Shown here: positions 4,125-57,053 of the stretch, in pieces
Layout of the letters: every line of letters begins with the position of its first letter
How positions within the stretch are numbered: the stretch's first letter is position 1
Source: a virus
Reading direction: 5' to 3' (one strand)
Length of the DNA stretch: 64,000 bases
Virus record (IMG/VR): IMGVR_UViG_3300019752_000004
Coordinates: 1-64,000 of that record
Program-made: the position numbers and the translations under genes
The notes under the pieces: generated by a model
What the model was told of the DNA's origin: nothing
The model's database searches: none
What the model saw: only the letters and a program-made list of their open reading frames with translations

Positions 4125-4135
4125 AATTAAAAATA

Positions 4136-4200
4136 GTTGTTGACTATTGAATCTAAGGTGTGTATTCCTGTATTTGTGAGCAGGTGATACACACCTTTTT
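4136..4200 (+). repeat. Repeat family A copy 1: early promoter plus stem-loop (PeSL-like)
   Basis: TTGACT-N17-TATTCC within AAGGTGTGTAT TCCTG...CAGG TG ATACACACCTT hairpin; near-identical copies at 23931, 35442 and 44874. Confidence 0.9.
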
Positions 4201-4226
4201 CAATTTTAAATGTAGGAGAATATGCA

Positions 4227-6862: not shown

Positions 6863-6921
6863 ACGTAAATATGACTCATAGTATCTAAAATCATTTAAAA
6901 CGTGGTATAACCATGTTTCTG
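6849..6921 (+). repeat. Repeat family D copy 1
   Basis: CTAACGCATTCTAAAC...GTTTCTG aligns without gaps to 37483-37555. Confidence 0.7.
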
Positions 6922-10000: not shown

Positions 10001-10623
10001 TCTACTCTGGTTGGTAATGTATATGGGAGATTGACCGTATTATCTGAGTCATCTCCCCATATATACCCTAGTGGCGCAAAACGTCGAAAATGGTTGTGCG
10101 TATGTGAGTGTGGAAATACACAATAAATGTACTTGACAATAATTTGAAATCAGGCGATACTAAATCATGTGGTTGTCATCAAATAGAATGTTCCACAAAA
10201 CATGGATTGTGTGACCATCCACTATATCAAATATGGATTAGCATGATAAATAGATGTCACAACCCAAACAATAAAGACTATAGTTCATACGGTGGACGTG
10301 GTATATATGTATGTGATGTATGGCGAAATGATATCAACAAATTCATTGAAGATGTTGGTGATAGACCAGATGGATATCAGCTTGATAGAATAAATAACGA
10401 TGGTGGATATCATAAAGACAATGTAAGATGGATATCATCAAAAGAAAATAATAGAAATCGTAGATCAAATAAATTGATATCGCATGATGATAAAACAATG
10501 ACCATGATAGAATGGTCTGAACATTTAAATATGGATTATCAAAAATTGAAAATCTTAATCAATCAAGGCTATGCCTTGGACGAAATAATAAATTTATTGA
10601 GAAGTAGTTACATATTGTTGTAA
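10001..10623 (+). pseudogene. HNH homing endonuclease, frameshifted near 10120
   Basis: One frame reads LVGNVYGRLTVL...WLCVCECGNTQ*. The -1 frame continues INVLDNNLKSGDTKSCGC...YGGRGI...LDRINNDGGY..NVRW.....NNRN. Confidence 0.75.
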
Positions 10624-19344: not shown

Positions 19345-19394
19345 TTGACAAATGATATTAAGGTGTGTATTGCTATATGTGATACACACCTTTT
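19343..19394 (+). repeat. Repeat family A degenerate copy (promoter of gp52)
   Basis: TTGACA-N17-TATTGC in AAGGTGTGTAT...ATACACACCTT, inner stem shortened. Confidence 0.8.
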
Positions 19395-20710: not shown

Positions 20711-20714
20711 TAAA

Positions 20715-20749
20715 ATGGGTTTGGTGTGGAAATACCAAACCCATAAATA
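20715..20749 (+). promoter_or_regulatory. hairpin plus late promoter CATAAATA
   Basis: ATGGGTTTGGT...ACCAAACCCAT stem overlapping CATAAATA at 20742-20749. Confidence 0.65.
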
Positions 20750-23925: not shown

Positions 23926-23930
23926 TAAAA

Positions 23931-24012
23931 GTTGTTGACAACTAAAACTAAGGTGTGTATTCCTGTATTTGTGAGCAGGTGATACACACCTTTTTTAATT
24001 TTTAAAATGGAG
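23931..24012 (+). repeat. Repeat family A copy
   Basis: GTTGTTGACAACTAAAACTAAGGTGTGTATTCCTGTATTTGTGAGCAGGTGATACACACCTTTT...AAAATGGAG. Confidence 0.92.
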
Positions 24013-25187: not shown

Positions 25188-25822
25188 AAATAGACAAATC
25201 CAAGATATCTAAATTAAACTTCGAAAAGAAAAAGAGAGTTGCGCAACCCCAACCAAAATTGAATCAGTATGTTGATAATGCACTGTTGTCATCAGAGCTT
25301 GAAAAATGGTTGGACGATAGGAAAAAATGTATTGAAAATGGGGATGACACACCACAGATGCCTGAATATGTAGGCAAGTGTATCATCCAGATTGCAAACA
25401 ACCTGAGCAAGAAAGGCAATTTCCGAGGATATACATATGCTGATGAAATGGTGAGTGACGGAATCCTGACTGTATGTAAATACATTCACAATTTTGATCC
25501 TCATGCCGTAACTAAATCTGGCAAAGCAAATGCATTTTCATACATCACAATGATTCTGTACAATGCATTTAAACAGCGCATCAACACTGAAAAGCGTCAA
25601 AATTATAACAAACAAAAGGCATTCCAGATGTGTGGTGGATTTTCTTCTATTGACGGGGAAGATTATTCTGTGGTAACACAACAATTAGAGTGTGCAGGTG
25701 TTGGTAAAGATTATCTTGATAGTATTAATGCATATGAAGAAGCACATAGACTTAAAAGAGAATCAAAACGTGTAAAGGTTGAAAAAAACTCTAAAGTAGG
25801 ATTGTTCAAGGATTTAAAATGA
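25184..25822 (+). CDS. gp55: late-transcription sigma factor (T4 gp55-like)
   Basis: YVDN, NFRGYTYADEMVSDG, NFDP, NAFSYIT..YNAF.QRI..EK. Confidence 0.93.
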   Translation: MKIDKSKISKLNFEKKKRVAQPQPKLNQYVDNALLSSELEKWLDDRKKCIENGDDTPQMPEYVGKCIIQIANNLSKKGNFRGYTYADEMVSDGILTVCKYIHNFDPHAVTKSGKANAFSYITMILYNAFKQRINTEKRQNYNKQKAFQMCGGFSSIDGEDYSVVTQQLECAGVGKDYLDSINAYEEAHRLKRESKRVKVEKNSKVGLFKDLK

Positions 25823-35079: not shown

Positions 35080-35442
35080 ATGGAAATGTTTGAAAGATGC
35101 GTAAGAGAGAAAGTTAGATTCAATTACAATGGTGTTATCACGACAGAAGATTTGTGGGATTTACATACACTTACACTGGATGTAATCTATTCTGAAATTC
35201 AGTTGAAAATTGAAAGACTTCCAAAAACCAGCCTCATTAAAGGTGGGGTTAGTAAGGAACGTGAAAAACTTGAATTTAAAGCCTCTGTGGTCGCATATGT
35301 TTATAAGGTAAAGACAGAGGAAGAAAAAGAACGTGAACGTGTGGAAATCAATTCACAGCGTAGACAGAAGATTCTTAAACAGATCGAAGAACAGGAATTT
35401 AAAAACCTGTCTATTGATGAATTGAAAGAAATGTTGAAATAG
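35080..35442 (+). CDS. conserved phage protein (120 aa), partner of the 687-aa protein
   Basis: MFE...K.RF...G.ITTEDLWDL, coiled-coil C-terminus LSIDELKEML. Confidence 0.75.
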   Translation: MEMFERCVREKVRFNYNGVITTEDLWDLHTLTLDVIYSEIQLKIERLPKTSLIKGGVSKEREKLEFKASVVAYVYKVKTEEEKERERVEINSQRRQKILKQIEEQEFKNLSIDELKEMLK

Positions 35443-35523
35443 TTGTTGACAACTAAAACTAAGGTGTGTATTCCTGTATTTGTGAACAGGTGATGCACAC
35501 CTTTTTAATTTTTAAAATGGAGA
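35442..35523 (+). repeat. Repeat family A copy
   Basis: Differs from the 23931 copy by two substitutions in the hairpin and the T-run length. Confidence 0.92.
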
Positions 35524-37466: not shown

Positions 37467-37478
37467 ATCTCTCAAATT

Positions 37479-37555
37479 GATTCTAACGCATTCTAAACTT
37501 AAAGATAGGTCAATATACCTAAAATGGTTTAGAATGCGTTAGAATCGTGTTTCTG
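37479..37555. repeat. Repeat family D copy 2, a 20-bp inverted repeat between convergent genes
   Basis: GATTCTAACGCATTCTAAAC (37479-37498) / GTTTAGAATGCGTTAGAATC (37527-37546). Confidence 0.8.
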
Positions 37556-42665: not shown

Positions 42666-43157
42666 ATGGATAAATTTGCACTTGACAAGAATTTCATTTT
42701 ACAGTATTATAAAAATGATCCAGCTTTTCTAGTACGTATATTAGAATATAAAGTTGATTTCCGTGACATCATGAATGTCATTCTGGAACAGGATACTATT
42801 GAAGAACAGATTGAGATTATGAAAATCTGTAATGTGTCGCCACTGTTCCGTAAACTTACAAAGTCCATCCTACCGAGAAAGAATTTTCTCGTCAAAACCA
42901 AGAATATGAAAGATGATTTCGTATTCGACACCCAACAGCATACTACATGGTATGCACTTGCACGTGATATTCATCTGTATGAAGATATTGGTGAATATAG
43001 CGTAGAACAATCACAAAATCATTTACATGAAAAACTTACCGCTATGGGCGAGTATGAAGGTAATTACATACTGGGATTTATCCTAGGGGAACAATCAGAC
43101 ACACGCATCACAGATCAACTACTGATTGAGTGTGGTGTCATAGACCCTTGGGAGTAA
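42666..43157 (+). CDS. hypothetical protein
   Basis: ORF track; AGGAG RBS. Confidence 0.7.
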   Translation: MDKFALDKNFILQYYKNDPAFLVRILEYKVDFRDIMNVILEQDTIEEQIEIMKICNVSPLFRKLTKSILPRKNFLVKTKNMKDDFVFDTQQHTTWYALARDIHLYEDIGEYSVEQSQNHLHEKLTAMGEYEGNYILGFILGEQSDTRITDQLLIECGVIDPWE

Positions 43158-43163
43158 TAGTAT

Positions 43164-43406
43164 ATGCCTTTATATGAAGCTTATTGTCCATGTGGGAACA
43201 CAGAGGATTTCTTTTCTAGTGTGACCGAACGTCATGCAGATGCAGAGTCACTTGTGTGTTCTGACTGTGGTAAAAACATGTTATTAGGTTGTGGAAACGC
43301 TGCTATTATCGCTGGTGTAGCAAGCGCATATAGCAAGACTCCACAGGATTTTCGTGATCTTATGAAGAAGATAAATAAAGACCATAGGGGGTGTATGGAC
43401 CTATGA
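43164..43406 (+). CDS. FmdB-family zinc-ribbon protein
   Basis: MPLYEAYC.CG...CSDCG...F.DLMKKI. Confidence 0.8.
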   Translation: MPLYEAYCPCGNTEDFFSSVTERHADAESLVCSDCGKNMLLGCGNAAIIAGVASAYSKTPQDFRDLMKKINKDHRGCMDL

Positions 43407-43633
43407 TTAAATCAGCAGATGAAATATCAAGAGAAATAATTCTGTTATCACAGGATTCTGGCGATTCAGTTTTCAGTTGCGTCATTGATGTTTTTGAAAA
43501 ATATCAGATTGATCATATTGATGCACTCAAATTTTTGACACCTCAAATTCTGTCTGTGTTGGAAAACGAGTGTGCTGAAAAACGTATGATTGATGCAACC
43601 CCTGTAAAGTCTTTATTCGAGATGTTAAAATGA
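43403..43633 (+). CDS. gp33: late transcription coactivator (T4 gp33-like)
   Basis: Size, weak sequence pattern and position between FmdB and gp32. Confidence 0.6.
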   Translation: MIKSADEISREIILLSQDSGDSVFSCVIDVFEKYQIDHIDALKFLTPQILSVLENECAEKRMIDATPVKSLFEMLK

Positions 43634-43855
43634 AATATTTAATACGTAATTATTTTAGTGAAAAGTTTCCTAATTATGATTGTGTAGAAGATAATGAAAT
43701 ACAGTGTGGTGTAACAGAAACCATACAAATTCCGTCTAGCAAAAACTATATTACAGTGTTGTACTGTGTGTGTAGTAAAACTATTAGTTACAAAATAATT
43801 CAAAACAAGCAAAAACTATGGCTATAAGCCAAATGTAAGCAAAAAAGGAAAACTT

Positions 43856-44851
43856 ATGAACTTGAACAAATTGAGAACAATGCAGGGCAAAGGTACAGAC
43901 GCACTTAAAAAACGTTTGGAAAAGGACGGTCAAAGTGGTGGATTTAAAAAGGATGAACGCATCTGGAAACAGAGTCCTAATAGCAAAAATATCTGCGAAT
44001 GTCGTATCAGACTTCTGCCTATCCCTGCTGTAGATTTTAAGGGTGTAGAAGAAGGTAAATGGGAAGAAGATGATTTGACACCAGCAGCAAAGATTCAATC
44101 TGTATTCTTTCGCTCAAGCTCTAATCAGGTGTATGCTGAGAATTCTTTGCAGACGTTCGGTGAAGATGATCCTGTACGTGACATGGATGGACCTAACTGG
44201 GCTATCGCCAATGAAAATGATGATGAAGTGTTGAAAAAGATTTTGCGTAGAAGACTTCCACAGCACAAATTTTATGCAAATGCTTTGATCATCAATGATA
44301 GCACAAATCCAGAAAATAATGGTCAGGTTCGTCTTTTTGAATTCGGTAAGGCTATTTACAAAATCATTGAAGAAGCCAAAGAACCTGAATTTGCAGATCA
44401 GGAACCTATTGATGCCTTTTGTCCCTTTACTGGTGCAGACCTCATTCTTAATATTAAATATGAGAATCGAAAATTTAATGGTAACGATTGTAAGGTACCA
44501 AAGGATTTTGCTAACGTTAAATTTGATACACCTAAACCATTGTGCGATGGAGATGAAGAAGCTATTAAAGAGCTTTGGGAAAAATCATATTCTATCATGG
44601 AATTTTATGACCGTAAAAACTTTAAAACCTATGACGAACTTAAAAAACGTCTGATGAAAGTAATGGATTTGGATGAAGATTTGAAACCTAAAGGACTCGC
44701 ATCTAAATCTACTGGTTCTAGTCTTGAAAATGATGTCAAGGAACGTCCTGCACAGGTATCTAAACCTAATGATAATGAAGCAGTCAATGAAACTCCTGTA
44801 GAACATACAGAAGATAATCTTGATGATAGGCTTGAAAAACTGTTAGGATAG
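43856..44851 (+). CDS. gp32: single-stranded DNA-binding protein (T4 gp32-like)
   Basis: DERIWK, IRLLP, ENSLQTFGEDDPV, NPENNGQV.LFEFGK, FKTYDELK, acidic tail. Confidence 0.93.
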   Translation: MNLNKLRTMQGKGTDALKKRLEKDGQSGGFKKDERIWKQSPNSKNICECRIRLLPIPAVDFKGVEEGKWEEDDLTPAAKIQSVFFRSSSNQVYAENSLQTFGEDDPVRDMDGPNWAIANENDDEVLKKILRRRLPQHKFYANALIINDSTNPENNGQVRLFEFGKAIYKIIEEAKEPEFADQEPIDAFCPFTGADLILNIKYENRKFNGNDCKVPKDFANVKFDTPKPLCDGDEEAIKELWEKSYSIMEFYDRKNFKTYDELKKRLMKVMDLDEDLKPKGLASKSTGSSLENDVKERPAQVSKPNDNEAVNETPVEHTEDNLDDRLEKLLG

Positions 44852-44873
44852 ATTTAGAAATTAATTCATAAAA

Positions 44874-44955
44874 GTTGTTGACAACGTTTTTAAAGGTGTG
44901 TATTCCTGTATTTGTGAGCAGGTGATACACACCTTTTACTTTAACAAAATGGAGA
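44874..44955 (+). repeat. Repeat family A copy with a family-B-type 3' end
   Basis: Family A hairpin followed by TTAACAAAATGGAGA. Confidence 0.88.
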
Positions 44956-44960
44956 ACATT

Positions 44961-45356
44961 ATGGAACTTGAAGTTGTCATTAACAAATGTTATGGTGGGT
45001 TTGGATTGTCTTTGAATGCGGTTGTAAAATACTTAGAATTATGTGACCAAGATTATTATATATACCATGACAATCATAAGATCGCTGATTTGAGTGGTCA
45101 TATTGGAAACGATGCAGACATGTACATTGTATGCACAGAGAATCATGGTGAATATATCTCTAACTCAAAAGTATTATCGGTGGATGTATTCAATTATCAT
45201 ACAATCAAAAGAACTGATAAAAATTTGATACATGTTGTGAGAGAGCTTGGAGAAATGGCAAATGTCAACGGATCAAATTTAAAAATTGAGTCAATTGAAA
45301 TTGATTTGGATACTATGATCACTGATCTTGATGGATATGAAAATATTAATCTTTAA
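44961..45356 (+). CDS. conserved phage hypothetical protein (VINxCYGGFGLS family)
   Basis: VVINKCYGGFGLS...R.D..LI.VV.ELG..AN...DGYE. Confidence 0.78.
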   Translation: MELEVVINKCYGGFGLSLNAVVKYLELCDQDYYIYHDNHKIADLSGHIGNDADMYIVCTENHGEYISNSKVLSVDVFNYHTIKRTDKNLIHVVRELGEMANVNGSNLKIESIEIDLDTMITDLDGYENINL

Positions 45357-45431
45357 AAGTGCTGATGAAATTGAACGTGTAACAGCTTTGTACGAAAGTA
45401 TTTAACATTCACCCTGTTTATAAATATCTAC

Positions 45432-45926
45432 ATGAGTAGAAAATATAAACAGGGTGTTTTTGTACCTAAGAACCCACAAAAATATAAAGGCAATGTTAAT
45501 AACATCATATATCGTAGTTCATGGGAACAGATAGCTTTTAGATTCTGCGACCAGACTACAGATGTTATATGGTGGCAAAGTGAAGAAACTGTAATCGAAT
45601 ATATTTCACCAGTTGATAATAATTCTCACAGATATTATATGGATATCACTATGTGTGTAAGACAAGCATCTGGTAAAGAACAGGTGTTCATGGTCGAAAT
45701 CAAACCTAAAGAACAGACTGTATTTCCTCAGAGGAAACGGAAAAAAGAGTTGACATTTCTAAAAGAAGTTGAAACATATAGTATTAACGCAGCAAAATGG
45801 AATGCAGCTAAAAAGGTTTGTGAACGACATGGATATAAATTTTTAATCTGGACACAGGATCATCTATTGCCTAAAAAGCCAGCTAGATTAAAAAGATTTA
45901 AAAAACCTGTTGACAAACGAAAATGA
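45432..45926 (+). CDS. gp4: head completion nuclease (T4 gp4-like)
   Basis: PKNPQKYKG, YRSSWE, WQSEE, HRYYMD, VEIKP, N.AKW.AA; TATAAATA at 45419-45426. Confidence 0.92.
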   Translation: MSRKYKQGVFVPKNPQKYKGNVNNIIYRSSWEQIAFRFCDQTTDVIWWQSEETVIEYISPVDNNSHRYYMDITMCVRQASGKEQVFMVEIKPKEQTVFPQRKRKKELTFLKEVETYSINAAKWNAAKKVCERHGYKFLIWTQDHLLPKKPARLKRFKKPVDKRK

Positions 45927-45982
45927 GTTGAATATAACTGGATTCATGGAAGGCAAAGATTTATAAACTTAACAAAATGGAG
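45901..45982 (+). repeat. Repeat family B divergent copy (early promoter plus RBS) overlapping the gp4 3' end
   Basis: TGTTGACAA-...-TATAACT.GA.TCATGGAAGGCAAA...AACTTAACAAAATGGAG. Confidence 0.8.
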
Positions 45983-47537
45983 TTCGTGATGGAAAAGGCA
46001 TTTATTATTGTACGTGTGGTTGACAATCTCAGATGGAATGAAACAACAAAATACAACCAGTGTGTTATGTTGGATGAAGAACTTGCCAATAAAAAGTGTG
46101 ATGAACTGAATACAGAAGCACGGGTGCATAATGCTGGCAATGGTCATGTTAAAAACAGTTACCGTGTAGAAATCGTTAACGTGGAGAAATAAAATGAAAC
46201 TGTATGGATTGAGACATAAAGAAACTGGGGTAATCCTCCGTGTTATTACACCACTTCCACAGGACCATTATTTAACAGTTAGACCAATTGGCGGTGTATG
46301 GGCTACACCTAACTACGATGATGCACTTTATGTGGCTAATAATGAAAACTTAGAATTTGCAGCATGTCCATACAATAGACCACAAAATGGTTATTGTGGT
46401 TACCTCGAAGTTGTTGAACTTGAAATCGTGGAGAAATAAAATGGAAGTTAAATACGCATTGGATAAACGAAATTTCAAAATTATCAGTGGCGAATATCGT
46501 GAGGAAACCGTTGGATACGTTAGAGAGTTCTACCTTGGAAAAACTCAGATTTATGGTGTGCCTATTTTTGACACAATGGAACAGTTATATGAGCATTATA
46601 ATACACTTCTGGCATCTGAGAAACACCGTGGTGAACTGATTATAACTGAAGCAGCGTCTAACATGGTCAAACTTACTAAATTGTGTTTCGGCAATGATTC
46701 TGTTCTTTAAACCTCATACAGACCATTATATTGGTCACAATAAAGGATATTAAAATGAAACGTAAACTTGAGATTGGTGATTCATTTATTGATAGGTATG
46801 AAAATGGTTACATATTCTCTGGCATCGTTGGTGGTAGTGTATGCCTTACTATGATGCTTGGAACCGTACCAGTTCCTTTATATTTCAAAGTCAATGAAAT
46901 GCACTATTACCGTGATGTATTTATTGTAGAGTCTGATACAGTTGATGGTGAAACATATGTGTATGTAGAGATGCACAAATAAAGGATATTGAAATGAAAC
47001 CAGTTGTAGGAAAATACTATTACATCCGAATTGTTGAACTTTCAGAAGATGTTCTTGATTTAACTACATTCACCACATACTGTTTTATGGTAATTGGTTT
47101 CATGGGTCCGTTAGGGACTCTCTATTTAACATCAGAGAAAAAGGTTGGTTTCAATGACTAAAGACACAGAAGTAATTTCAGAATGTGTACAGTTGCTTGA
47201 TCTCAATTATGAACGTGAATTTCTACTCAGTGAGTTGAATAAACACCTGACACATCCACTCGAAAAAGAACATGTAACATACATCACATCTAATAAAGAT
47301 TTGGATAGAAGACTGACAAACCAATGGCAGACGTTTTTAGAAGTTGTTGATGAGTATATTGACACCTATGATCTTAGATATGAACTTGAAACCATCAATG
47401 GTTTTGACTGGATGCTTGTATTTTATCAAAACCTCTATCTTTTTAAAATTTATAAGAAACCACAGGATGTAGACGCATCTAATTATATGGAAGAATTCAT
47501 GTTGAATCTAATCAAGACTTCAAAGTGTGGTTTCTAA
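45977..47537 (+). other. cluster of small early hypothetical CDSs (45977-46192, 46194-46439, 46441-46710, 46755-46982, 46994-47161, ~47154-47537)
   Basis: Coupled ORFs with repeated junction motifs. Confidence 0.65.
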
Positions 47538-47550
47538 CATAAATAGGGAT

Positions 47551-48237
47551 ATGGCACCTAAAAAACAAAAACAAGATTTTCTAAGCGCAACTGAAAGACA
47601 ACAGTCTGGTGATATTGCTGCACGTTATAAAAATGCCTACAGGAACTCTGTAGGTCAACGTGCGGCTCTTCACACACGTAAAGCACATCAATGGTACATG
47701 AAACGTATCTCAAAGGATGTGAAACAGGCTAACAGTCTGAGAAAGAAAGTTGTAGGTGAAGAAAAATATAGAAGACGGGGTAGAGGGGAAATTAGAATAG
47801 GTGATTTGTATCTGTTTCAATATCCTGATCCAGTTCATAAAGACACCTTACCATATTATGATACATGGCCCTGTGTATTCTTTTTTGATGAATACACATC
47901 AAAGGCTGGTAAACGTATTGTGCTTGGTTTAAATTTCCACTATCTGCCGCCAGCACTCCGATATAAATTATTTGATGATCTACTTAAACTCAGAAATGAA
48001 AAACGGTATAGACCAACCACTCGGTTGAAAATGAGTTGGAAGACCATCAAAGCAGCTTCAAAAACAAATGCATATGCGGCAGCTGTACACGCATATAGAG
48101 TTGACAGAATACGTGGTGGTCTGATAAAGGTTAATCCTACTGACTGGGCACAAGTTATTGCATTGCCTATTGCTAACTGGAAAAAATCTAGTAGACAAAA
48201 TGTATATGCTGATACAAAATCTAAATTGAGGAAGTAG
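47551..48237 (+). CDS. gp2: DNA end protector protein (T4 gp2-like)
   Basis: IGDLYLF.Y...K.TLPYYDTWP, GLNFHYLPP..R; CATAAATA at 47538-47545. Confidence 0.92.
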   Translation: MAPKKQKQDFLSATERQQSGDIAARYKNAYRNSVGQRAALHTRKAHQWYMKRISKDVKQANSLRKKVVGEEKYRRRGRGEIRIGDLYLFQYPDPVHKDTLPYYDTWPCVFFFDEYTSKAGKRIVLGLNFHYLPPALRYKLFDDLLKLRNEKRYRPTTRLKMSWKTIKAASKTNAYAAAVHAYRVDRIRGGLIKVNPTDWAQVIALPIANWKKSSRQNVYADTKSKLRK

Positions 48238-48238
48238 T

Positions 48239-49517
48239 ATGAAAGATTTAGGAATGATTGAATCTCATGATGACATCAATCAATATATCATCGCTATAGG
48301 TGATGAAAGATTTTATAATATGAAACCTATACACGGATTCAATATATTTGGATTATTAGAATATAAAGATGAAATACATTTTATGTGTGCAGATGATGGT
48401 CATTATTGGTCCGAAGGTATTGTGAACCCAGTCAATATCAATAAATTTCGTGAATTTGTCTGTATGTTGGAAAACGCTATTGATATTAAGAAATCTAGAA
48501 TTATTATAAGAAATAAAAAATTGTTCCGTAACAATGATTATTGTTGTAAAATTGATGGAAAGACTATTTCTATGATTTTTGAGGATATAAATCTTACTTT
48601 CGATATCGCGTGGCTTCCAGTGTTGATTAAAACATTAGATATAGAATAGGAATTAGTATGTATTTGAAAAAGGAAAAGAGAAAAGTTGAAGTTGTGAGTG
48701 AAGTTGATGTATTGTTTGTGACGGTCCAATGTGATCGTTGTGGTAAAATTGAAGAATTGGAAGACAAAGAACCTGATGACTATTTATATCAGAGTATCAC
48801 ATATGTCAATGGTTGGGCTGTTGTTATTGCGGAGTCTAAAAACCATGATAGGGATAATATAAACATCTGTCCTGATTGCACAAAAAGCTTCTTTGAAGAA
48901 TATACAAAATTTCATAAATTAGATGATTAACATTGAACATATTGAAAAGACTCTAAATGATTTGTTGGAATCATACGGATATGGTAAGAAAATGGTTTTA
49001 ATAGAATCATCTGGTGCCAAAATCGAATTATCTGCCAATTTAGAACGTGAACGGATGTTGCAAGGGTTTGACGATATCAATAATTCATGGGATATTAGAT
49101 CAATGAATAAAATGATTCGTAGACAAAACACTGTTACTGAATTTGTTAAAATCCCAAAGGGTACTGGAATGATTCGAAGACGTGGAAACAACACTGGATA
49201 TAGAAGAGAACGTTTTTACAGACGATGAATAAACACCCGAAACCCCGTATCATGAATACGTAATATGATTTAATCAGGGGTTTTGGGTTAATTAAAAGGA
49301 GTGATGAATGGGTAGTAGTTATCAATCTACATATGTAAATGGTAAGAGAATTGTTGTTGAAACCAGTGGCCATAAGATTTTCATCAATGGGCACGAACTT
49401 TCAGATGATATGAAATCTATTGTTAAGAAAGATTTTGGTTCCAATGGATTCGTAACTGGGTTTATGATTGGTATTGCAGTTCCTTTTGTTCTGCAATTTA
49501 TTTATAACTTGTTTTAA
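48239..49517 (+). other. small hypothetical CDSs (48239-48649, 48658-48930, 48923-49228, 49308-49517)
   Basis: ORF track with RBSs; hairpin at 49235-49288. Confidence 0.6.
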
Positions 49518-49530
49518 AATGGAGAACAAA

Positions 49531-49959
49531 ATGAATGAAATTGAACGTGTGAAGACATAATTAAGAAATCTTGATCCAGATAATTATGTTGGCAAGCATA
49601 TTACATGCACTGCACCTGAATATGATGGATATCCAGAATTTAAATGTCCATGTGTAGTAACTGGATTTGATTATGATATTGGTATCAGCATTCAAGCAAG
49701 TGAAGATTGTAGCAATGAATATGAATATACATCTGCTTATAAAAATGAATATATTCTTTGTCTTAATGGTCCATCGTCACCAGTAGTGAAGAAAATTAGT
49801 GTTGAAAATAGAATGGGTGAAGATGTATATACCAACATGTTTAAATACCTTGTCAATGCAATAGATATCGGTGATGTTAATTATGATGATCTTGAAGAAT
49901 CTAAAGGTTCTTATATTGCAGGACATCCTACATCGGATACATGTGCATTTGCTCAATAA
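49531..49959 (+). pseudogene. 143-codon hypothetical gene with an in-frame TAA at codon 10
   Basis: GGAG RBS, then MNEIERVKT*LRNLDPDNYVGKH...CAFAQ*. Confidence 0.7.
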
Positions 49960-49965
49960 TAAAAA

Positions 49966-50064
49966 ATTTAAAAAACTTGTTGACAAGTGAATGAGGTCTG
50001 CATATAACTAGACTCATGGAAGGGAGAATTCCTTAATAACTTAACAAAATGGAGAAAGAAAATG
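49966..50064 (+). repeat. Repeat family B (early promoter plus RBS)
   Basis: TTTAAAAAACTTGTTGACAAGTGAAT..GGTCTG.ATATAACTAGACTCATGGAAGG...AACTTAACAAAATGGAGA. Confidence 0.92.
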
Positions 50065-50253
50065 AATGTTCATGAAATGCGTATCATCCTCAATAAGATT
50101 TACAACGGAAATGTGTTATATGAATCTGATGACACAGACACTCTATTTCATGAAGGTCTGATTACTACAACTAAAGTTAATTGTTGCGGAGAGGTTCATC
50201 CGTTAATAATCCTAACCCCACTCGGTGAACGTGTGAGAAGTAATTTTAAATAG
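50062..50253 (+). CDS. small cassette ORF (63 aa)
   Basis: Lies between repeats B and C; LTPLG C-terminus is weakly winged-helix-like. Confidence 0.7.
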   Translation: MNVHEMRIILNKIYNGNVLYESDDTDTLFHEGLITTTKVNCCGEVHPLIILTPLGERVRSNFK

Positions 50254-50273
50254 TTTGTCACCACACCATACAT

Positions 50274-50336
50274 AAATTTTACCCCTAGTAGAAACATTAA
50301 TTCTACTAGGGGTTTCTTGTTTCTGATAAATACTTT
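50274..50336 (+). repeat. Repeat family C (terminator plus late promoter)
   Basis: ACCCCTAGTAGAA...TTCTACTAGGGGTTTCTTGTTTCT-GATAAATA. Confidence 0.92.
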
Positions 50337-50429
50337 TAAAAACTTGTTGACAAGTGAATATGGTCTGTATATAACTAGACTCATGGAAGGCAAATCCTTA
50401 ATAACTTAACAAAATGGAGATACAAAATG
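50335..50429 (+). repeat. Repeat family B
   Basis: Near-identical to the 49966 and 52241 copies. Confidence 0.92.
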
Positions 50430-50618
50430 ACTGTTCATGAAATCCAAAATCAATTAGCACCGTATAGACTATATTGGGATTCTAATGACGATTGTGTATA
50501 TAATGAAGATGATGTCTTCTTTGAATATGTACCTTACAACGATATGGTGGGTTTTATTTCTAGATGTATAACCGGAGAAGCATTTTCTGCACAGAAAATT
50601 ATTACAGCTGGCGAATAA
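50427..50618 (+). CDS. small cassette ORF (63 aa)
   Basis: Lies between repeats B and C; starts MTVHE like the neighbouring cassette (MNVHE). Confidence 0.7.
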   Translation: MTVHEIQNQLAPYRLYWDSNDDCVYNEDDVFFEYVPYNDMVGFISRCITGEAFSAQKIITAGE

Positions 50619-50639
50619 GACAACCAATTAAACAAACCA

Positions 50640-50706
50640 AAATTTTACCCCTAGTAGAAACCTTCATTCTACTAGGGGTTTCTTGTTTCTGATAAATACT
50701 TTTAAA
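50640..50706 (+). repeat. Repeat family C (terminator plus late promoter of gp48)
   Basis: Same hairpin; GATAAATA at 50691-50698. Confidence 0.92.
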
Positions 50707-50718
50707 AGAGATATTTTT

Positions 50719-51678
50719 ATGAGATTTGCAACAAGAACAAGAAATATAATTAACCGTATCAACGGCAGAAAACCAGATTCAACCACTACAGGAACATATG
50801 ATCCAACGACTTTAAAACAGTTGGTATTCCCCCGTGACGTTCTAACACTCACAGAGGGTAATGGTCATTACATCCTTTTTAACATCAACACTGTTGTTGG
50901 TTCTAGATTTAGTTCCCGTGCAACCCGTGTAGTAGAAAACACTGTTAACAATCCATTCGGTGATGAACCAGTTGTACAGCAATCAGGGAGTTCTAGTCTT
51001 AGAACATTGACACGAAATCATGTTCGTAGTGATGAAAGTATAGTCATGTTCATGCCACCTAACCTAAGTACAGCATATAATGTTGACTGGTCTGCAACTG
51101 AATTAGGTGTACTTGGATCAGTATTAGCCGATGGTCTTAATTTTGATTCAGTCAACCTAGAGGATGTTAAACGTGTTACAGGTAGACTTGTAAAAGAAAC
51201 TGCATTGAATCTAGCCAGCCTAGTTGGTGTAAATGCAGAGGAATCATATAGATTGTATAGTGCTGAGACAAAGAATCCATTTACAGAAACACTTTTCAAC
51301 GGGATTTCAAACAGGACATTACCTCTGAATTTTAGAATGAATGCACGGTCTGAAAATGAAGCCGAAACCATTAAAGAGATTGTACGTAGATTTAAATTTC
51401 ATGCTGCACCAGAAATTGTAGATGGGGATATCAGGTCATCTTATTTTAAAGCACCATCTACCTTTGATATTACATTCATGAACAAAGACCAGAACAATGT
51501 TTACCTTCACAGAATGTCTACATGTGCGCTATCAGATATTAACGTTAATTATACGCCTAATGGCGAATATAGCACGTTAAAGAATGGTGCACCAACACAG
51601 ATTGAACTTGAACTTAAATTCACAGAGCTTGAAGTTCTCACTAAATCTAAATTTCTTGATCCAGATAACAGTTTCTAG
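50719..51678 (+). CDS. gp48: baseplate tail-tube cap (T4 gp48-like)
   Basis: HYILF, MFMPP, NPFTETLF.G...R, EA..I..I..F, P.TFDI.F, VNYTPNG, L.FTELE. Confidence 0.88.
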   Translation: MRFATRTRNIINRINGRKPDSTTTGTYDPTTLKQLVFPRDVLTLTEGNGHYILFNINTVVGSRFSSRATRVVENTVNNPFGDEPVVQQSGSSSLRTLTRNHVRSDESIVMFMPPNLSTAYNVDWSATELGVLGSVLADGLNFDSVNLEDVKRVTGRLVKETALNLASLVGVNAEESYRLYSAETKNPFTETLFNGISNRTLPLNFRMNARSENEAETIKEIVRRFKFHAAPEIVDGDIRSSYFKAPSTFDITFMNKDQNNVYLHRMSTCALSDINVNYTPNGEYSTLKNGAPTQIELELKFTELEVLTKSKFLDPDNSF

Positions 51679-51687
51679 GAGGTTCCA

Positions 51688-52242
51688 ATGTATTTTCAAC
51701 TTTTTCCACACAGATGGTTTACACTCTCAAACGGTGAAACCATATTATACAATAACTTTACACGAGCCGTAGGCGTTACAAATAGTATAGTAGAAGATGA
51801 AACTAATCTGATTAATTATATTATTGCCGATGGTGAACGTGCTGAACAGATTAGTCAACGTGTATATGGATCAACAGAATACTGGTGGATTATATATCAT
51901 GTGAATAGAATTGAGAATCCAGTTGTAGATTGGCCTTATCCAAATTCAATATTAGATGATATTAGATTGGAAGAGTTTCCGAATAGTTCGCCAGTGGATG
52001 TTCATCACTATGAGGATAAGTATGATAATATAGTTGATATAAATCATTTCAGAGCCTTGTATCCTAATTATGATGATGCTCGGATTGTGGCTGAAAATGA
52101 ATTGACTATAGTGACGTTAGATGAATTTTATACTGGTGAAAATGAAGAGAAACGTAATATTAGACTAGTTGATCCACTGTATATAGATGTAATTGCTGGA
52201 CAATTAGAAGCATTATTTTATAGTGCAATAAATCGAAATTAA
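51688..52242 (+). CDS. gp53: baseplate wedge subunit (T4 gp53-like)
   Basis: MYFQLFP, Y.I.DGERAE.IS..VYG....WWII, DWP, NEEKRNI. Confidence 0.9.
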   Translation: MYFQLFPHRWFTLSNGETILYNNFTRAVGVTNSIVEDETNLINYIIADGERAEQISQRVYGSTEYWWIIYHVNRIENPVVDWPYPNSILDDIRLEEFPNSSPVDVHHYEDKYDNIVDINHFRALYPNYDDARIVAENELTIVTLDEFYTGENEEKRNIRLVDPLYIDVIAGQLEALFYSAINRN

Positions 52243-52339
52243 TTTAAAAAACTTGTTGACAAGTGAATTAGGTCTGCATATAACTAGACTCATGGAAGGC
52301 AAATCCTTAAAAACTTAACAAAATGGAGAAAGAAAAATG
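52241..52339 (+). repeat. Repeat family B
   Basis: Near-identical to the 49966 and 50335 copies. Confidence 0.92.
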
Positions 52340-52858
52340 ACAACTACAGAAACCATAATCAATGTCATTAAGGACCAAATAAGACCAGCTATGGATGTGT
52401 GGGAAGATGATATGTATAACTTTATTAAGGATTTGCAAGAATATTGTACAAAGACTGTATATAATGATTATGAAGATCAGAAAGGTTCCTTCAATTTGAT
52501 GGGGAACTACACCGCAAATGAGAGCAAATCCTATATTATTCATATTCTTAAAGAACGGAATGGATATAAGAAAACCTATGAACGATTCTTTCACAGAAGT
52601 GAAACTGATCTTAAAGATATGATTCATAAAGAAGCTACACATAAGCTTAACAAAATTGATGTTGCCGTAAAAAAGAAACTTAATGGTGTTGACATAGAAA
52701 AGATTGAAATGCTTGGTTTTAATGCTTATTCTGCAAACGGCTTTTGTGATGGTGCTTGGAAAATTAATGATAATAAGGTGTTTTCATTCCGAGGTATTTA
52801 TGCAGGTGGATATAACATACAGTGTCATCATGTAAGAACACTTTACACATACAAGTAA
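52337..52858 (+). CDS. cassette ORF, phage hypothetical protein (AGGYNIQ motif)
   Basis: Lies between repeats B and C inside the baseplate operon; C-terminal IYAGGYNIQCHHVR. Confidence 0.75.
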   Translation: MTTTETIINVIKDQIRPAMDVWEDDMYNFIKDLQEYCTKTVYNDYEDQKGSFNLMGNYTANESKSYIIHILKERNGYKKTYERFFHRSETDLKDMIHKEATHKLNKIDVAVKKKLNGVDIEKIEMLGFNAYSANGFCDGAWKINDNKVFSFRGIYAGGYNIQCHHVRTLYTYK

Positions 52859-52874
52859 TAAACTATATAAATTA

Positions 52875-52948
52875 AAATTTTACCCCTAGTAGAAACCTTC
52901 ATTCTACTAGGGGTTTCTTGTTTCTGATAAATACTACTAAAAGAGATA
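52875..52948 (+). repeat. Repeat family C (terminator plus late promoter of the hub gene)
   Basis: Core identical to the 50640 copy; GATAAATA at 52926-52933. Confidence 0.92.
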
Positions 52949-52954
52949 TATTAT

Positions 52955-54136
52955 ATGGCTACATTAATAGAAGAAGGAAAATATGAATTATTTTCCTGTT
53001 ACATACTCACGCACATGCAGGAACAAATTGATGTGCGAAACCTGATGATAGAATTTGATGTATATGAATCTATGTACAGTGATTCTGTTACAGGTACACT
53101 CATTTTAGGTGACACCCTAAATTTACTTGCTAATGCCCCCATCATCGGTGGTGAAACAGTAGTTTTCCAATTTAGAACCACAGGTAAATTTGAAACCAGA
53201 ACCCATAGATTCATAGTGTATAGCTGCACTAACAGAAACGTAGATAAAAATAAAACCCAGCTGTATAAATTAAAATTATGCACATCAGAAAAGTATGATG
53301 ATTTAAATCAAAGTATTTCACGTGCTATCAATGGTCATTATAGTGATTCTGTAGTTTCTATATTAAATGAAATCAGTGATAAACCTGTTGTATCCGATAA
53401 ATCTACTGGGATACACCAATATATAATTCCATATACCACACCATTTGATGCGATACGTAGATTAACACAGAAATCGATCGACAGTGATAATAATCCATTT
53501 GTTTTCTACGAATCTACTGTTACAGGATATAATATTAGAAGTGTATCGGCATTGTATGAACAGGAAGCAGTTACAACCTACATATTTTCACCATCAAACA
53601 CTCGTCCAGTTGAAGAACGTTATAGGAATATTAAAGAATATGATGTTCAGCAATCCAATAACGTGAATAAATATAATGAGAGATTTGTCAATGGTGGGGT
53701 CATGCAGACATTCGATCTATTTTCAAAAACGTATGTAGAGGATAACATTGTACGGGATAATAGCGTTGTATTAGATAATTCACCTGTGCCAGATGTATAT
53801 AATAAACGTAGGACAAGAACCAAGTTTCAGATAGATGATATGTCTACAGGTAGATTTGATGATTTTCATAAGAACAGTGAGGCTGTAATGCACCGAAACT
53901 ATGCTATGACATGGCTTTTAGCTGGTGATGAAAATCTTGTACTGGGATCAGTAGTTAATTTTGATATTCCATCACTAGAAGAACAGACTGATGTACTAAA
54001 AATAGACCCACTATATAGCGGTAGGTTCCTAGTCAGTGCTATTAAACATACATGGACTAAAGTTGAATATAGCATGAATGTAGAGGTTGTTAAAAATAGT
54101 TTCAATAGGGAAACGGGAATAAACAATGGCAGATAA
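52955..54136 (+). CDS. baseplate hub protein (gp27/gpD-like)
   Basis: VYESM.S..VTG.L...D, PIIGGE, FVFYES, SGRFLVSAIKH; synteny. Confidence 0.78.
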   Translation: MATLIEEGKYELFSCYILTHMQEQIDVRNLMIEFDVYESMYSDSVTGTLILGDTLNLLANAPIIGGETVVFQFRTTGKFETRTHRFIVYSCTNRNVDKNKTQLYKLKLCTSEKYDDLNQSISRAINGHYSDSVVSILNEISDKPVVSDKSTGIHQYIIPYTTPFDAIRRLTQKSIDSDNNPFVFYESTVTGYNIRSVSALYEQEAVTTYIFSPSNTRPVEERYRNIKEYDVQQSNNVNKYNERFVNGGVMQTFDLFSKTYVEDNIVRDNSVVLDNSPVPDVYNKRRTRTKFQIDDMSTGRFDDFHKNSEAVMHRNYAMTWLLAGDENLVLGSVVNFDIPSLEEQTDVLKIDPLYSGRFLVSAIKHTWTKVEYSMNVEVVKNSFNRETGINNGR

Positions 54137-55793
54137 TAAAAAATCAGGATTAGACGCAACTAGCGATCAGCTGAGACAACAACAGACTGTAGAATCAGGA
54201 ATGGATGAAATCCATATTCAAGTAGAATCCGCTTTGAATAAACTGGCTATGTCCTTTGAACAGAATGACAAGCGTAGTGTTAGACAGACACAGAATCAGT
54301 TGAAGGGTTTAGAATCCAAATTGCTGGAAAGAACTGATGTACAATCAAAAGAATATTTACAACTCGTTTCAGCAAATCTATCACAGACTGCTAATAGTGT
54401 TAGTCTTGCGTCCAGAGCGTCAGAAACGGCCTTGTCACGCATCCAAAGCAGTTTACCTACACGTGATACCTTTTTAGCTGCATTAACCACAGCAAACCCC
54501 ATTGTGGGTCTCTCTGCGAGTCTTGCAACAAACTCTTTAGCAAGTTTGTCAGAATCTCGCAAAATGCGAAGACTTGAACACAAACAGCAGGGCAAAAACC
54601 TTAAAGCTGAATTGGAACGCATTAAAGAATCAAAAGCTATTGCTCCCGCATCTGAACCATCTAATGTATTAGAACCTGAAATAGTTGATATTGAACCTAT
54701 CACATCTAATTTAGAAAAAGTTCAAGACCCTTTAAATGATATAGTTGCTGTAAATGAAAAGATTTTAGAACGACTTGATGACAGTGTAGATATAGCTAAA
54801 CAGAATGAATTGGAAGAAGATAGGAATGCAGCTATTGCCAGAAGAGAAGACATTAGAGAAGGTAATATAGTTCCTAAAGATGATGCTGAAAAGGTTGGGG
54901 ATGAAAAAGATACTGGATTGCTAGGTAGTCTAGGTGGATTCTTTTCATCATTCGCCGCATCTATTACAGGATTTCTTGCTGGTGGTGCTGGACTCATAGG
55001 TGGATTGGGATTGGCTTTTGCTGGATTCTATGCAGCTTATCAAATTATTGAGGGATTTTTCAATGCTGGTGAAATCTTTGGAAAGGATAGTGTCACATTC
55101 ATTGAACGTATCAGTGGCGGTCTAGCTGGTCTTCTAGGTGGTTTTTTGGATTTATTTGAAGGTGTGTTTAGTTTCTTTGGCGTTGAATTGGATTTGAAGG
55201 GTGATGAAATCACACAGACCGTAGCATATTTTCTTAGAGATATGATAACAGGCATAGTAGATTTCTTCACAGGTATTGGTCAAGGTGTACTAATGATATT
55301 CACTGACCCAGAACAGGGATTTAATAAAATTAAAGACACCTTTGTTGAAACATTTGATAAAGTGCTAGACAGTATAGTAGCTGGTTTTGAATTTATACAG
55401 GATGCAATTGCGGAACCAATTGAAAGAGTCGAATCAGCTGTATCAGGTATGTTTGATTTCATGACTGATGCTATCAATGATATGATTCAGAGTGCTGCAC
55501 AACTAGCTGTAGATATTTTACCAGATATAGTAACACCCGATTCGCTGAAAGATGTCGCTGAATATGGATTGTTTGAAAAGCAGATTTCTCCATCATCTAC
55601 AATGCCTGAAAATATAGATCGTGTAGAACAGAATATTAAACAGCGTGAAAGAGAATCAAATGTAGCTGCTACAGCTGCACAGGTTATCAATGCACCATCT
55701 GTCAATTCTAGGAATGAAAATGTTCAGGTTGTTGGTGGTGTGTTGAATGCTAACGCTAATGATGGTGATTTTGGAACCTCACGGTGGTTCTAA
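54126..55793 (+). CDS. tape measure / baseplate hub protein (T4 gp29-like)
   Basis: Helical, Gly/Ala-rich hydrophobic middle with regularly spaced Phe; C-terminal VINAPSVN; position in the tail module. Confidence 0.7.
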   Translation: MADNKKSGLDATSDQLRQQQTVESGMDEIHIQVESALNKLAMSFEQNDKRSVRQTQNQLKGLESKLLERTDVQSKEYLQLVSANLSQTANSVSLASRASETALSRIQSSLPTRDTFLAALTTANPIVGLSASLATNSLASLSESRKMRRLEHKQQGKNLKAELERIKESKAIAPASEPSNVLEPEIVDIEPITSNLEKVQDPLNDIVAVNEKILERLDDSVDIAKQNELEEDRNAAIARREDIREGNIVPKDDAEKVGDEKDTGLLGSLGGFFSSFAASITGFLAGGAGLIGGLGLAFAGFYAAYQIIEGFFNAGEIFGKDSVTFIERISGGLAGLLGGFLDLFEGVFSFFGVELDLKGDEITQTVAYFLRDMITGIVDFFTGIGQGVLMIFTDPEQGFNKIKDTFVETFDKVLDSIVAGFEFIQDAIAEPIERVESAVSGMFDFMTDAINDMIQSAAQLAVDILPDIVTPDSLKDVAEYGLFEKQISPSSTMPENIDRVEQNIKQRERESNVAATAAQVINAPSVNSRNENVQVVGGVLNANANDGDFGTSRWF

Positions 55794-55852
55794 CGCATTC
55801 TAATTCATTTCTGGATTCATAGTACCATTTTAAAATTAAAAGCTCTTAGAAG
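55788..55852 (+). repeat. Repeat family D copy 3
   Basis: TTCTAACGCATTCTAA...TCATAGTACC...TTAAAA....TTAGAA, same spacing as the other copies. Confidence 0.65.
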
Positions 55853-55870
55853 CTAAAATAGAGACAATTT

Positions 55871-56488
55871 ATGATAGAATTATTTAAAGGGCATATAAGT
55901 GCATTAGGGATATCAAGACAGAACAGGTTTAGGGTTATCATACCAGTGCCTGTAAATATTGTTGATGACCTGTTTGATGATGAAACACTAAATGATATTT
56001 CATCACTCATCCAGACAGGTGCACAAACATATGCATTGAGTCTAATGTGTACTACTGCACAGACTAACGGCAGAACTATTAATCTGGTTGATAGTAAAAA
56101 TACTGGATCACTATTACAATTTCCATCAGGGATTACAAAAGAGCCAGTTGAACTGACATTTATATTGACTGAACCCCTGTTAGAACAGCGTATCATTGAT
56201 AACTGGCTGGATACAATTGTTGATCCATATACAGGTGAGATGGGATATATGGATGAATATACAACTGATATTGATATTGAACAGTTATCTAATGCAGAGG
56301 GATTAATAAGTCAGTTGCCAGTATACAGAACAATTTTACATGATGCATATCCTGTGTCGCGTGGACCACTGGTATATGATAACAGTTCTCAGAACACATT
56401 TCATACTATGAATGTATCATTTACTTACAAAAGGTCTGTTAATGGTCTGGATTTGAGTCCTATTGCGGCTCTATCTAGATTTGTATAA
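55871..56488 (+). CDS. gp54: tail tube initiator (T4 gp54-like, gp19 fold)
   Basis: GISRQNRFRV.I, WLD.I, Y.DEY..DI.I.QL, AYP, V.F.YK. Confidence 0.8.
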   Translation: MIELFKGHISALGISRQNRFRVIIPVPVNIVDDLFDDETLNDISSLIQTGAQTYALSLMCTTAQTNGRTINLVDSKNTGSLLQFPSGITKEPVELTFILTEPLLEQRIIDNWLDTIVDPYTGEMGYMDEYTTDIDIEQLSNAEGLISQLPVYRTILHDAYPVSRGPLVYDNSSQNTFHTMNVSFTYKRSVNGLDLSPIAALSRFV

Positions 56489-56530
56489 TGGAATCCCCTG
56501 TTGATACGGTGTGAACAACAGGGGATTCCA
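56489..56530. terminator. bidirectional terminator
   Basis: TGGAATCCCCTGTTG...CAACAGGGGATTCCA between convergent genes. Confidence 0.8.
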
Positions 56531-56546
56531 ATATTAATTTCATTCA

Positions 56547-57053
56547 TTATCCAAACATAATTCTGAACAATCGTTCTTGGCGGTTTCTAGCACCCTCATA
56601 ATCAACCTTATAAGCCACAGCATAAGTAGCCGCAGCATAAGCAACGGCATAATCAACGGCATGAACATTGATGTTAGCCGTATAAGCTGGCGCGGTATTA
56701 ATTTCAATAACAGCATTATATGCAAATTCCAATTCATCTTTAGTTGCTTCACCATGACAATATAGGTGTGCAATTTTCACAGCATTTAAACTTCTTTCAT
56801 CCTCAATGAGATGTAAAATGTCCTGACAACATGCAACTGCAAATAGTCTTACAAGTTTCTCATCTTCAACTGTTCTTAAAGTCCAAACAGCATCATTCAA
56901 ACCATTAATATCTAAGATAGTAGTTAGTGCTAATGGATCATTATCAGCTTTAGATTTATTCAAGCCTTTGAGAAGTGCTTTCCAACCATCCTCACAAGGT
57001 TTATGTTCACGTATTTCATTAAGTGTTGTGTAAACTGTCATTTTATTCTTCAT
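56547..57053 (-). CDS. conserved phage hypothetical protein
   Basis: TTLNEIR...PC.DGW..LL..L.K...D..PL...IL..NG..DA.W family; Ala-rich C-terminus. Confidence 0.75.
   Translation of the reverse strand: MKNKMTVYTTLNEIREHKPCEDGWKALLKGLNKSKADNDPLALTTILDINGLNDAVWTLRTVEDEKLVRLFAVACCQDILHLIEDERSLNAVKIAHLYCHGEATKDELEFAYNAVIEINTAPAYTANINVHAVDYAVAYAAATYAVAYKVDYEGARNRQERLFRIMFG

Follow-up and report, generated by a model that had tools for sequence, protein, structure and literature searches.

Three small gene units with near-identical ends and unrelated cargo lie beside or between the baseplate genes of IMG/VR virus record IMGVR_UViG_3300019752_000004, of which the first 64 kb (here called the window) were analysed; the record is itself a partial contig of 82,849 bp. 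We think it probable that these units are self-contained early-gene cassettes of the kind represented by PeSL elements and morons, carried by a divergent T4-like phage. They occupy positions 49966-50336, 50335-50706 and 52241-52948, and all three have the same order of parts: an early-type promoter, a ribosome-binding site, an open reading frame (ORF), a hairpin predicted to be a terminator, and the motif NATAAATA. Units 1 and 2, which are 366-367 nucleotides (nt) long, are arranged head to tail between small uncharacterised ORFs 3′ of gp2 and the start of gp48, with unit 2 preceding gp48; unit 3 sits between gp53 and the gene for the hub. A sequence-only reading of the window had described this arrangement, including different cargo between the shared ends and a unit 2 that feeds gp48, and the positions agree with what we find.

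The likeness among the units is sharply bounded. It ends a few codons into the ORF and returns about 8 nt before the hairpin, and at the joint of units 1 and 2 the switch from the right end of the former (R1) to the left end of the latter (L2) falls inside TTTAAAA, a sequence common to both ends. The unit ends are 89-95% identical, whereas the bodies of the cargo genes show no resemblance beyond that of codon shuffles: for the DNA of cargos 1 and 2, 165 of 300 shuffles gave an alignment score at least as high as the observed one. Such repeats are not a product of chance. The left end bears no inverted-repeat relation to the right end.

Judged by its genes, the contig is a very divergent T4-like phage. 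PHROGs and Pfam together identify replication and recombination genes of T4 type (gp45, gp44/62, RegA, gp32, gp41, gp43, gp61, gp46/47, UvsX, rIIA/B and topoisomerase II) and virion genes for gp5, gp25, gp26, gp4, gp2, gp48, gp53, a gp27-like hub or tail protein and a tape-measure-like protein, a set that marks a T4-like myovirus of the sort in which PeSLs occur. The genes closest to the units are, all on the plus strand, those for a gp48-like baseplate tail tube cap (50719-51678), a gp53-like baseplate wedge subunit (51688-52242) and the gp27-like baseplate hub or tail protein (phrog_350; 52955-54136). The gp48 protein is at most 46% identical to that of any GenBank phage, the closest being Pseudomonas phage Cygsa01 and Ackermannviridae. 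In a search of 5.8 billion proteins the top match, the window's own protein aside, has 39% identity. A megablast search of GenBank phages with 49500-53500 gave no match, an IMG/VR search with gp48 gave no relative, and patterns for the right and left ends each had 0 matches in IMG/VR, JGI metagenomes and GTDB genomes. There was also no Rfam match over 44000-56000 at E<=1.

The two ends and the late-promoter motif

The left end is about 95 nt long and consists of an A-rich tract (ATTTAAAAAA), TTGACA, a 17-nt spacer, TATAAC, a leader of about 45 nt, GGAG and ATG. Its copies in the units are L1 (49966-50061), in which this order of parts starts with an AT-rich tract and TTGACA at 49980, L2 (50335-50426; TTGACA at 50347) and L3 (52241-52336; TTGACA at 52256), the last of which starts at the stop codon of gp53; like all the ends discussed here, they lie on the plus strand. 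L2 (over 50341-50415) and L3 differ at 4 of 75 positions, and L1 departs from the other left ends by a few substitutions and a 2-nt insertion or deletion. A divergent copy of this B-type left end (45891-45990) stands at the head of the small ORFs that lie between gp4 and gp2; it had been recognised in the earlier reading, and is found at 45904 with 15 mismatches in 75 positions. In all four copies GGAG stands 7-8 nt upstream of ATG, as the Shine-Dalgarno sequence and start codon of a PeSL would. The 82.8-kb contig contains four B-type left ends and four or five elements of a second, A-type family, all of them before small uncharacterised ORFs or early-type genes, and at least one more B-type copy is found outside it; like PeSLs, they are thus repeated and stand mostly upstream of ORFans. 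Elsewhere in the contig TTGACA with an A-rich tract occurs upstream of non-structural genes, among them a ParB-like gene, a topoisomerase gene and small ORFs.

As a putative promoter the left end has a perfect TTGACA and a −10 element, TATAAC, that agrees with the consensus at five of six positions and lacks the canonical final T. A sigma-70 consensus scan did not list it. The small hairpins previously read into the left end are weak, with z scores (between −0.9 and +0.25) indistinguishable from those of shuffles. A 15-nt stretch of the leader (50390-50404, 52299-52313) is complementary to 52422-52436, about 85 nt into the third cargo gene; the complementarity is perfect, or 14 of 15 for L3, and could represent long-range pairing within the unit-3 mRNA or chance (about 0.07 such matches expected in the region, by our own estimate).

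The A family is the canonical PeSL form. Its elements, at 4123-4210, 23918-24005, 35429-35516 and 44861-44948, with a weaker copy at 19338-19381, join TTGACA to a strong stem-loop of 17 pairs that has a T-tract (−23.5 kcal/mol, z = −5.6) and is followed by a ribosome-binding site; GTTGTTGACA stands ahead of the stem-loop. The ORFs behind the copies at 23918 and 35429 have their first 13 nt in common. In an A/B hybrid on the plus strand (44861-44954), the A-family promoter and stem-loop are followed by a 14-nt leader of B type, TTAACAAAATGGAG, which occurs five times in the contig and always behind such elements. This hybrid had been taken to imply exchange between the families; the hybrid is indeed present, and exchange itself might be suggested on what is still thin evidence. 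A separate 89-nt direct repeat, 73% identical, with TAACGCATTCTAAAC-like words, lies at 6833-6921 and 37467-37555.

The right end, of about 70 nt, is plausibly a terminator joined to a gp55-type late promoter and a leader. It comprises a hairpin with arms ACCCCTAGTAGAA and TTCTACTAGGGGT, the tail TTCTTGTTTC, and GATAAATA 12 nt past the stem. In R1 (50273-50341) the hairpin at 50281-50313 and a T-rich tail are followed by GATAAATA at 50325-50332, and the sequence then runs into L2. R2 (50639-50718) has its hairpin at 50647-50679, GATAAATA at 50691-50698 and a leader, AAAAGAGATAT, that extends to the start codon of gp48; R3 (52874-52954) has its hairpin at 52882-52914, GATAAATA at 52926-52933 and the same leader, extending to the start codon of the hub gene. 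The three are identical at 65-69 of 73 positions in pairwise comparison. A 51-nt core (hairpin, T-rich tail and GATAAA) is found at 50280, 50646 and 52881 with 2, 0 and 0 mismatches, respectively; a search of both strands of the 82,849-bp contig that allowed up to 8 mismatches gave no other copy. The hairpin has a 13-bp stem with six GC pairs and a 7-nt loop, and the copies differ in the loop only. R2 folds at −26.9 kcal/mol (z = −5.3; −3.7 to −5.3 across the three copies), and of all terminator-like sites in 43000-57000 these three rank highest. In structure they qualify as PeSL stem-loops, for which termination is predicted. The likeness of R2 and R3 continues past the motif, through AAAAGAGATAT, and stops only 5-8 nt short of start codons that are themselves unrelated, whereas the leaders of gp26 and gp5 differ from this shared one; the right end was therefore copied whole, with hairpin, late motif and leader together.

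T4 late promoters have the sequence TATAAATA and are read by gp55. The first base of this motif is poorly conserved among T4-like phages, and NATAAATA has been reported in S-PM2, according to passages in PMC1524935 and PMC2984593. In the contig the 7-mer ATAAATA occurs 40 times over both strands, and 15 of these occurrences end 0-45 nt upstream of a called gene start (14 of 120 starts), compared with 1.3 expected under uniform placement, an expectation that is blind to AT-rich intergenic DNA. All of the structural genes that head a block carry the motif: gp26 (CATAAATA) and gp5 (AATAAATA) 18 nt before the ATG, gp4 (TATAAATA, 45419-45434) and gp2 (CATAAATA, 47538-47553) 5 nt before it, and gp48 and the hub gene (GATAAATA) 20 and 21 nt before it. 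A tube-like gene at 55871 is without it. With the spacing of T4, late transcripts of gp4 and gp2 would begin at or beside the start codon, which suggests that these two late mRNAs are leaderless. The phage also encodes a gp55-like late sigma factor (25358-25822, plus strand), a candidate reader of NATAAATA, and the placement of the motif together with this gene points to a gp55-dependent late promoter. A strong hairpin directly followed by a late motif is also found at 443-470, before an nrdG-like gene (TATAAATA), and at about 20714-20749, before a gene at 20778 (CATAAATA). Neither is related in sequence to the right end, and the pairing of a hairpin with NATAAATA is thus a habit of this phage.

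It is possible to propose how such a unit would function. The left end would act as an early promoter of the host sigma type and express the cargo soon after infection, while the hairpin of the right end would stop both the early transcripts and any read-through from upstream. The phage gp55 sigma would then read NATAAATA, 12 nt past the stem, and the shared leader would drive the next late gene, which is gp48 after unit 2 and the hub gene after unit 3. Late transcription begun at R2 would cross gp48, gp53 and cargo 3 and end at R3, with a restart for the hub gene, and cargo 3 would accordingly be made both early and late. Because the right end would terminate transcription and then restart it late, a cassette could lie beside or between baseplate genes without early spill-over or polarity. 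The idea that the right end stops early read-through and re-supplies a late promoter was part of the sequence-only reading. Its terminator-then-NATAAATA layout is confirmed, with the motif placed like the late motifs of other structural genes and gp55 encoded by the phage; the regulation built on this layout is plausible.

Cargo genes and the insertion of unit 3

The three cargo genes, all on the plus strand, have no Pfam or PHROGs match. Cargo 1 (50062-50253) is a 63-amino-acid ORF with no family match and no relatives, and cargo 2 (50427-50618) is a 63-amino-acid ORFan that finds only itself among 5.8 billion proteins; a BLASTP comparison of the two gives no alignment at E<=100. Cargo 3 (52337-52858) encodes 173 amino acids and belongs to a widespread phage family with the conserved C-terminal motif YAGGYNIQ..H.RT. 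It has 10 relatives in a large protein collection, at 34-99% identity, and 241 in IMG/VR, confirmed by tblastn. A Pfam assignment for this family was tried member by member, and the scans gave none consistently. The AlphaFold model of cargo 3 has a mean confidence (pLDDT) of 84.4; compared with the PDB it has no Foldseek match at E<=0.001 and no VIA-align match at Z>=5, in BFVD it matches uncharacterised viral proteins only, and in the ESM Atlas it has no usable match.

Homologues of cargo 3 have other neighbours and, often, a repeated promoter-like element upstream. In four loci the surrounding genes are for replication, nuclease, PhoH, protease or lysis functions, not for the baseplate. At 6 of the 10 loci examined, the homologue lies directly behind a promoter-like repeat with further copies in the same contig, or at 5 of 9 when two loci with the same gene order (L006 and L008) are counted once. 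One such homologue, in contig L013, is a member of a six-copy array of TTGACA, stem-loop and TATAAT. This stretch (L013, 2003-6005) is a textbook PeSL array in a 192-kb contig of an uncultured phage. L013 is also, with L005 and L009, one of three records with cargo-3 homologues that were searched for gp48 without a match, a weak negative because two of the three are fragments.

Unit 3 is an insertion. The sequence-only reading had called for a comparison of the gp53-hub region in relatives, and the comparison, made with distant phages, shows that gp53 and the gene for the hub or "tail protein" share 4-11 nt in seven of the eight examined (Cygsa01, Kuja, Maynard, RSP15, K474, ACP17 and JA15); the one exception is a cyanophage in which the gene order differs. 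In the window the two genes are separated by 712 nt, which is exactly L3, cargo 3 and R3. Because the genes overlap in the other phages, unit 3 can be said to split the pair, and it has the layout of a moron, with promoter, gene and terminator between genes that are adjacent in relatives. The earlier reading had placed all of the cassettes inside the baseplate operon, which is correct for unit 3, whereas units 1 and 2 are found where the gp48 block begins, on its 5′ side. In the Limestonevirus Dickeya phage JA15 (L090, 849-2492) an annotated homing endonuclease gene, F-LimIII, is present between gp48 and gp53, so the baseplate block tolerates mobile inserts elsewhere too.

Exchange, duplication and other explanations

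If the units do move, homologous recombination would be the likely route. Near-identical ends of 70-95 nt would be substrates for a UvsX-like recombinase, which the phage encodes (60329-61417, minus strand) and which we presume, as the earlier reading had supposed, to mediate exchange between repeats. A crossover between two left ends, or between two right ends, would delete, duplicate or swap a cargo, and the head-to-tail joint of R1 and L2 is the product expected if a circle of cargo plus R-L joint had recombined with a resident unit. In its fullest form the proposal is that the unit is a two-ended, polarity-free module that can be inserted even between translationally coupled essential baseplate genes, that integration of a mini-circle left the R1-L2 joint as its scar, and that cargo is swapped among sites and among co-infecting phages by UvsX double crossover. 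We put this forward tentatively and regard it as possible rather than probable. Unit 3 is flanked neither by a right end upstream nor by a left end downstream, so simple integration of a circle at a resident composite site leaves its arrival unexplained.

Several further observations weigh, with that one, against the units being cassettes of the PeSL or moron type. The right end has been found three times only, all at one locus. Its T-tail (TTCTTGTTTC) is interrupted, and the −10 element of the left end is TATAAC without the conserved final T. The GC content of the cargos (0.32-0.35) matches that of the genome (0.345) and gives no compositional sign of recent import. Cargos 1 and 2 are both exactly 63 amino acids long and have their first six codons in common (M-x-V-H-E), and nothing else, which could reflect an old duplication in place of independent cargo. 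No gain, loss or swap at the repeats is visible, since no close relative is present in any collection searched.

Many of these points fit an arrangement that is static, in which units 1 and 2 arose as a tandem local duplication, the right end was copied once more, the cargos diverged quickly, and the ends were kept alike by gene conversion and selection without any cassette having moved. The equal cargo lengths and common codons, units of 366-367 nt, a right end confined to one locus, cargo GC equal to the genome's, and the lack of an empty site or joint among the listed Logan contigs (see below) would all be expected. Duplication in place is harder to reconcile with cargo bodies that have fallen to the level of codon shuffles beside ends that are 89-95% identical, with further left-end copies that carry other cargo, and with a unit 3 that interrupts a gene pair overlapping in seven of eight relatives. 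The cargo-3 family, moreover, is found in phage contigs without a gp48 match, which implies that this gene was acquired and did not diverge in place, although the gp48 negative is a weak one. On balance we judge a static origin unlikely, while giving it real weight. Movement by a dedicated enzyme, whether by integron-like site-specific recombination, a homing endonuclease or a transposase, is very improbable: a tandem array with conserved ends, the JA15 endonuclease gene at the gp48-gp53 junction and an HNH endonuclease gene at 10243-10623 could be cited for it, but no integrase, transposase or endonuclease is present in or beside the units, no cargo has a family match to such an enzyme, and the two ends do not form mutual inverted repeats, although a distant enzyme may be encoded beyond this partial contig.

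It could also be asked whether the hairpin is chiefly a palindromic site for a phage regulator, or a stem-loop for RNA processing or stabilisation, and not a terminator. Its perfect 13-bp palindrome with changes in the loop only and its interrupted T-tail would suit such a role, as might a 12-mer of the stem arm (CCCCTAGTAGAA) that recurs as four direct repeats in the iteron-like array of an unrelated contig. Here too the balance is against it, and we consider it improbable, because the hairpin stands right after each cargo stop codon and its GC-rich stem and T-rich tail suit an intrinsic terminator, no candidate binding protein was identified, and a coincidence of the 12-mer is expected by chance about 0.07 times for the loci examined, by our own estimate. 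The array in question spans about 450 nt of non-coding DNA in the IMG/VR contig L013 (6352-6782; the same in L014), about 2 kb from the cargo-3 homologue, and contains the 12-mer four times exactly and six times degenerately.

The remaining concern is that the units are an artefact of collapsed or mis-joined repeats and that the order of the cargos is not real, a concern that the sequence-only reading had itself raised. The check used Logan contigs, which are assembled contigs only, from four public runs, all labelled microbial mat metagenome. The repeats of 70-95 nt do break these contigs at their edges, and the path R1-L2-cargo 2-R2 is bridged by none of those listed. All four runs nevertheless yield contigs with 0 differences from the window; one of them runs from upstream DNA through L1 and cargo 1 and over most of R1 (49246-50329), and another begins in the last part of cargo 3 and continues across R3 into the hub gene (52741-53383). 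The depth of all three cargos resembles that of the flanks, and the repeat copies carry distinguishing differences. We conclude that an assembly artefact is most unlikely, to the point of being almost negligible. Among the listed contigs there is no unit-skipping joint, circle junction or empty site, although with breaks at the repeats the contigs are silent either way. The single listed joint, from 44937 to 49512 with a side of 23 nt and 5 other letters between, looks like another A-family copy. In three runs there is at least one more left-end copy, which differs from those of the window in its upstream flank and in the ORF that follows; its depths (7.6, 4.9 and 2.2) track those of the phage, and it most likely lies in a part of the genome outside the contig. 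The loose ends corresponding to it are at 49973 and 50061, and its ORF matches the hub gene over the first 11 nt (52955-52965).

Relation to known systems

The closest parallel to the proposed cassettes is with PeSLs, composites of about 100 nt in which an early promoter is combined with a stem-loop, and which flank ORFans in the T4-like phages RB49/phi1, T4/PST and KVP40/nt-1 (Arbiol et al. 2010, PMC2839356; Comeau et al. 2014, PMC4122927). They are said to block the spill-over of early transcription into late virion genes and to mediate modular shuffling, and a middle-promoter form, PmSL, is described (PMC2839356, PMC4122927). Mini-circles were demonstrated by inverse polymerase chain reaction for RB49 and phi1 (PMC2839356). 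Like PeSLs, the elements here are repeated composites of about 100 nt in which an AT-rich tract, a putative sigma-70-like promoter, a stem-loop predicted to be a terminator, a Shine-Dalgarno sequence and a start codon are combined, and they flank ORFans in a T4-like phage. Both the proposed block to spill-over and the proposed gain, loss and swapping of cargo by homologous recombination, mini-circles included, are also shared, and the R1-L2 joint places a stem-loop upstream of an early promoter as in the PST type.

There are differences, however. The element in the window is split into two different ends, the right one of which carries the NATAAATA late motif and a leader for the next late gene, and the −10 sequence is TATAAC. 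In the main texts of the two papers, supplements excluded, the words "late promoter" occur 0 times (PMC2839356) and "late" 0 times (PMC4122927), so that a late-promoter form of the PeSL is not found there. The cassettes here also border or split baseplate genes, whereas PeSL groupings are described as rare in structural regions, with shuffling mainly in hyperplastic regions (PMC2839356, PMC4122927). The idea of shuffling has thus already been published for PeSLs, and what is new is the two-ended form whose right end would restart late transcription.

Two other systems bear comparison. Morons are described in temperate phages, where they are often expressed from the prophage. They were reportedly defined in lambdoid phages by Hendrix et al. 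in 2000 as a single gene with its own promoter and terminator, located between genes that are adjacent in relatives. By this definition a moron resembles a unit of the window in being a single gene with its own promoter and terminator, independent of the surrounding late operon, but morons have neither shared repeated ends nor a restart promoter for the downstream operon. Integrons, to which the sequence-only reading had likened the array, have in common with it a head-to-tail series of small units whose boundaries are conserved and whose cargo is unrelated. The cassettes of integrons usually lack a promoter, however, whereas each unit here has its own, and any exchange in the window would proceed through general homologous recombination. 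Among the 106 ORFs scanned on the partial contig none matched an integrase or recombinase family, no attI or attC sites were found, and the two borders of a cassette do not both carry imperfect palindromes of the attC kind. With only the tandem layout in common, "integron-like" should be taken as a metaphor.

Finally, we note what the cassettes would mean for T4-like phages, which are thought to keep their blocks of virion genes closed to accessory genes. If the proposal is correct, PeSL shuffling extends from the hyperplastic regions into the conserved virion core, and there is an explanation for how accessory genes, possibly with functions in host interaction, could settle harmlessly inside a late structural block. 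The cassettes would also mark sites at which to seek cargo of unknown function, including a family that is spread across phage contigs, and their layout would offer a ready design for the placement of payload genes in lytic phage genomes without polar effects.

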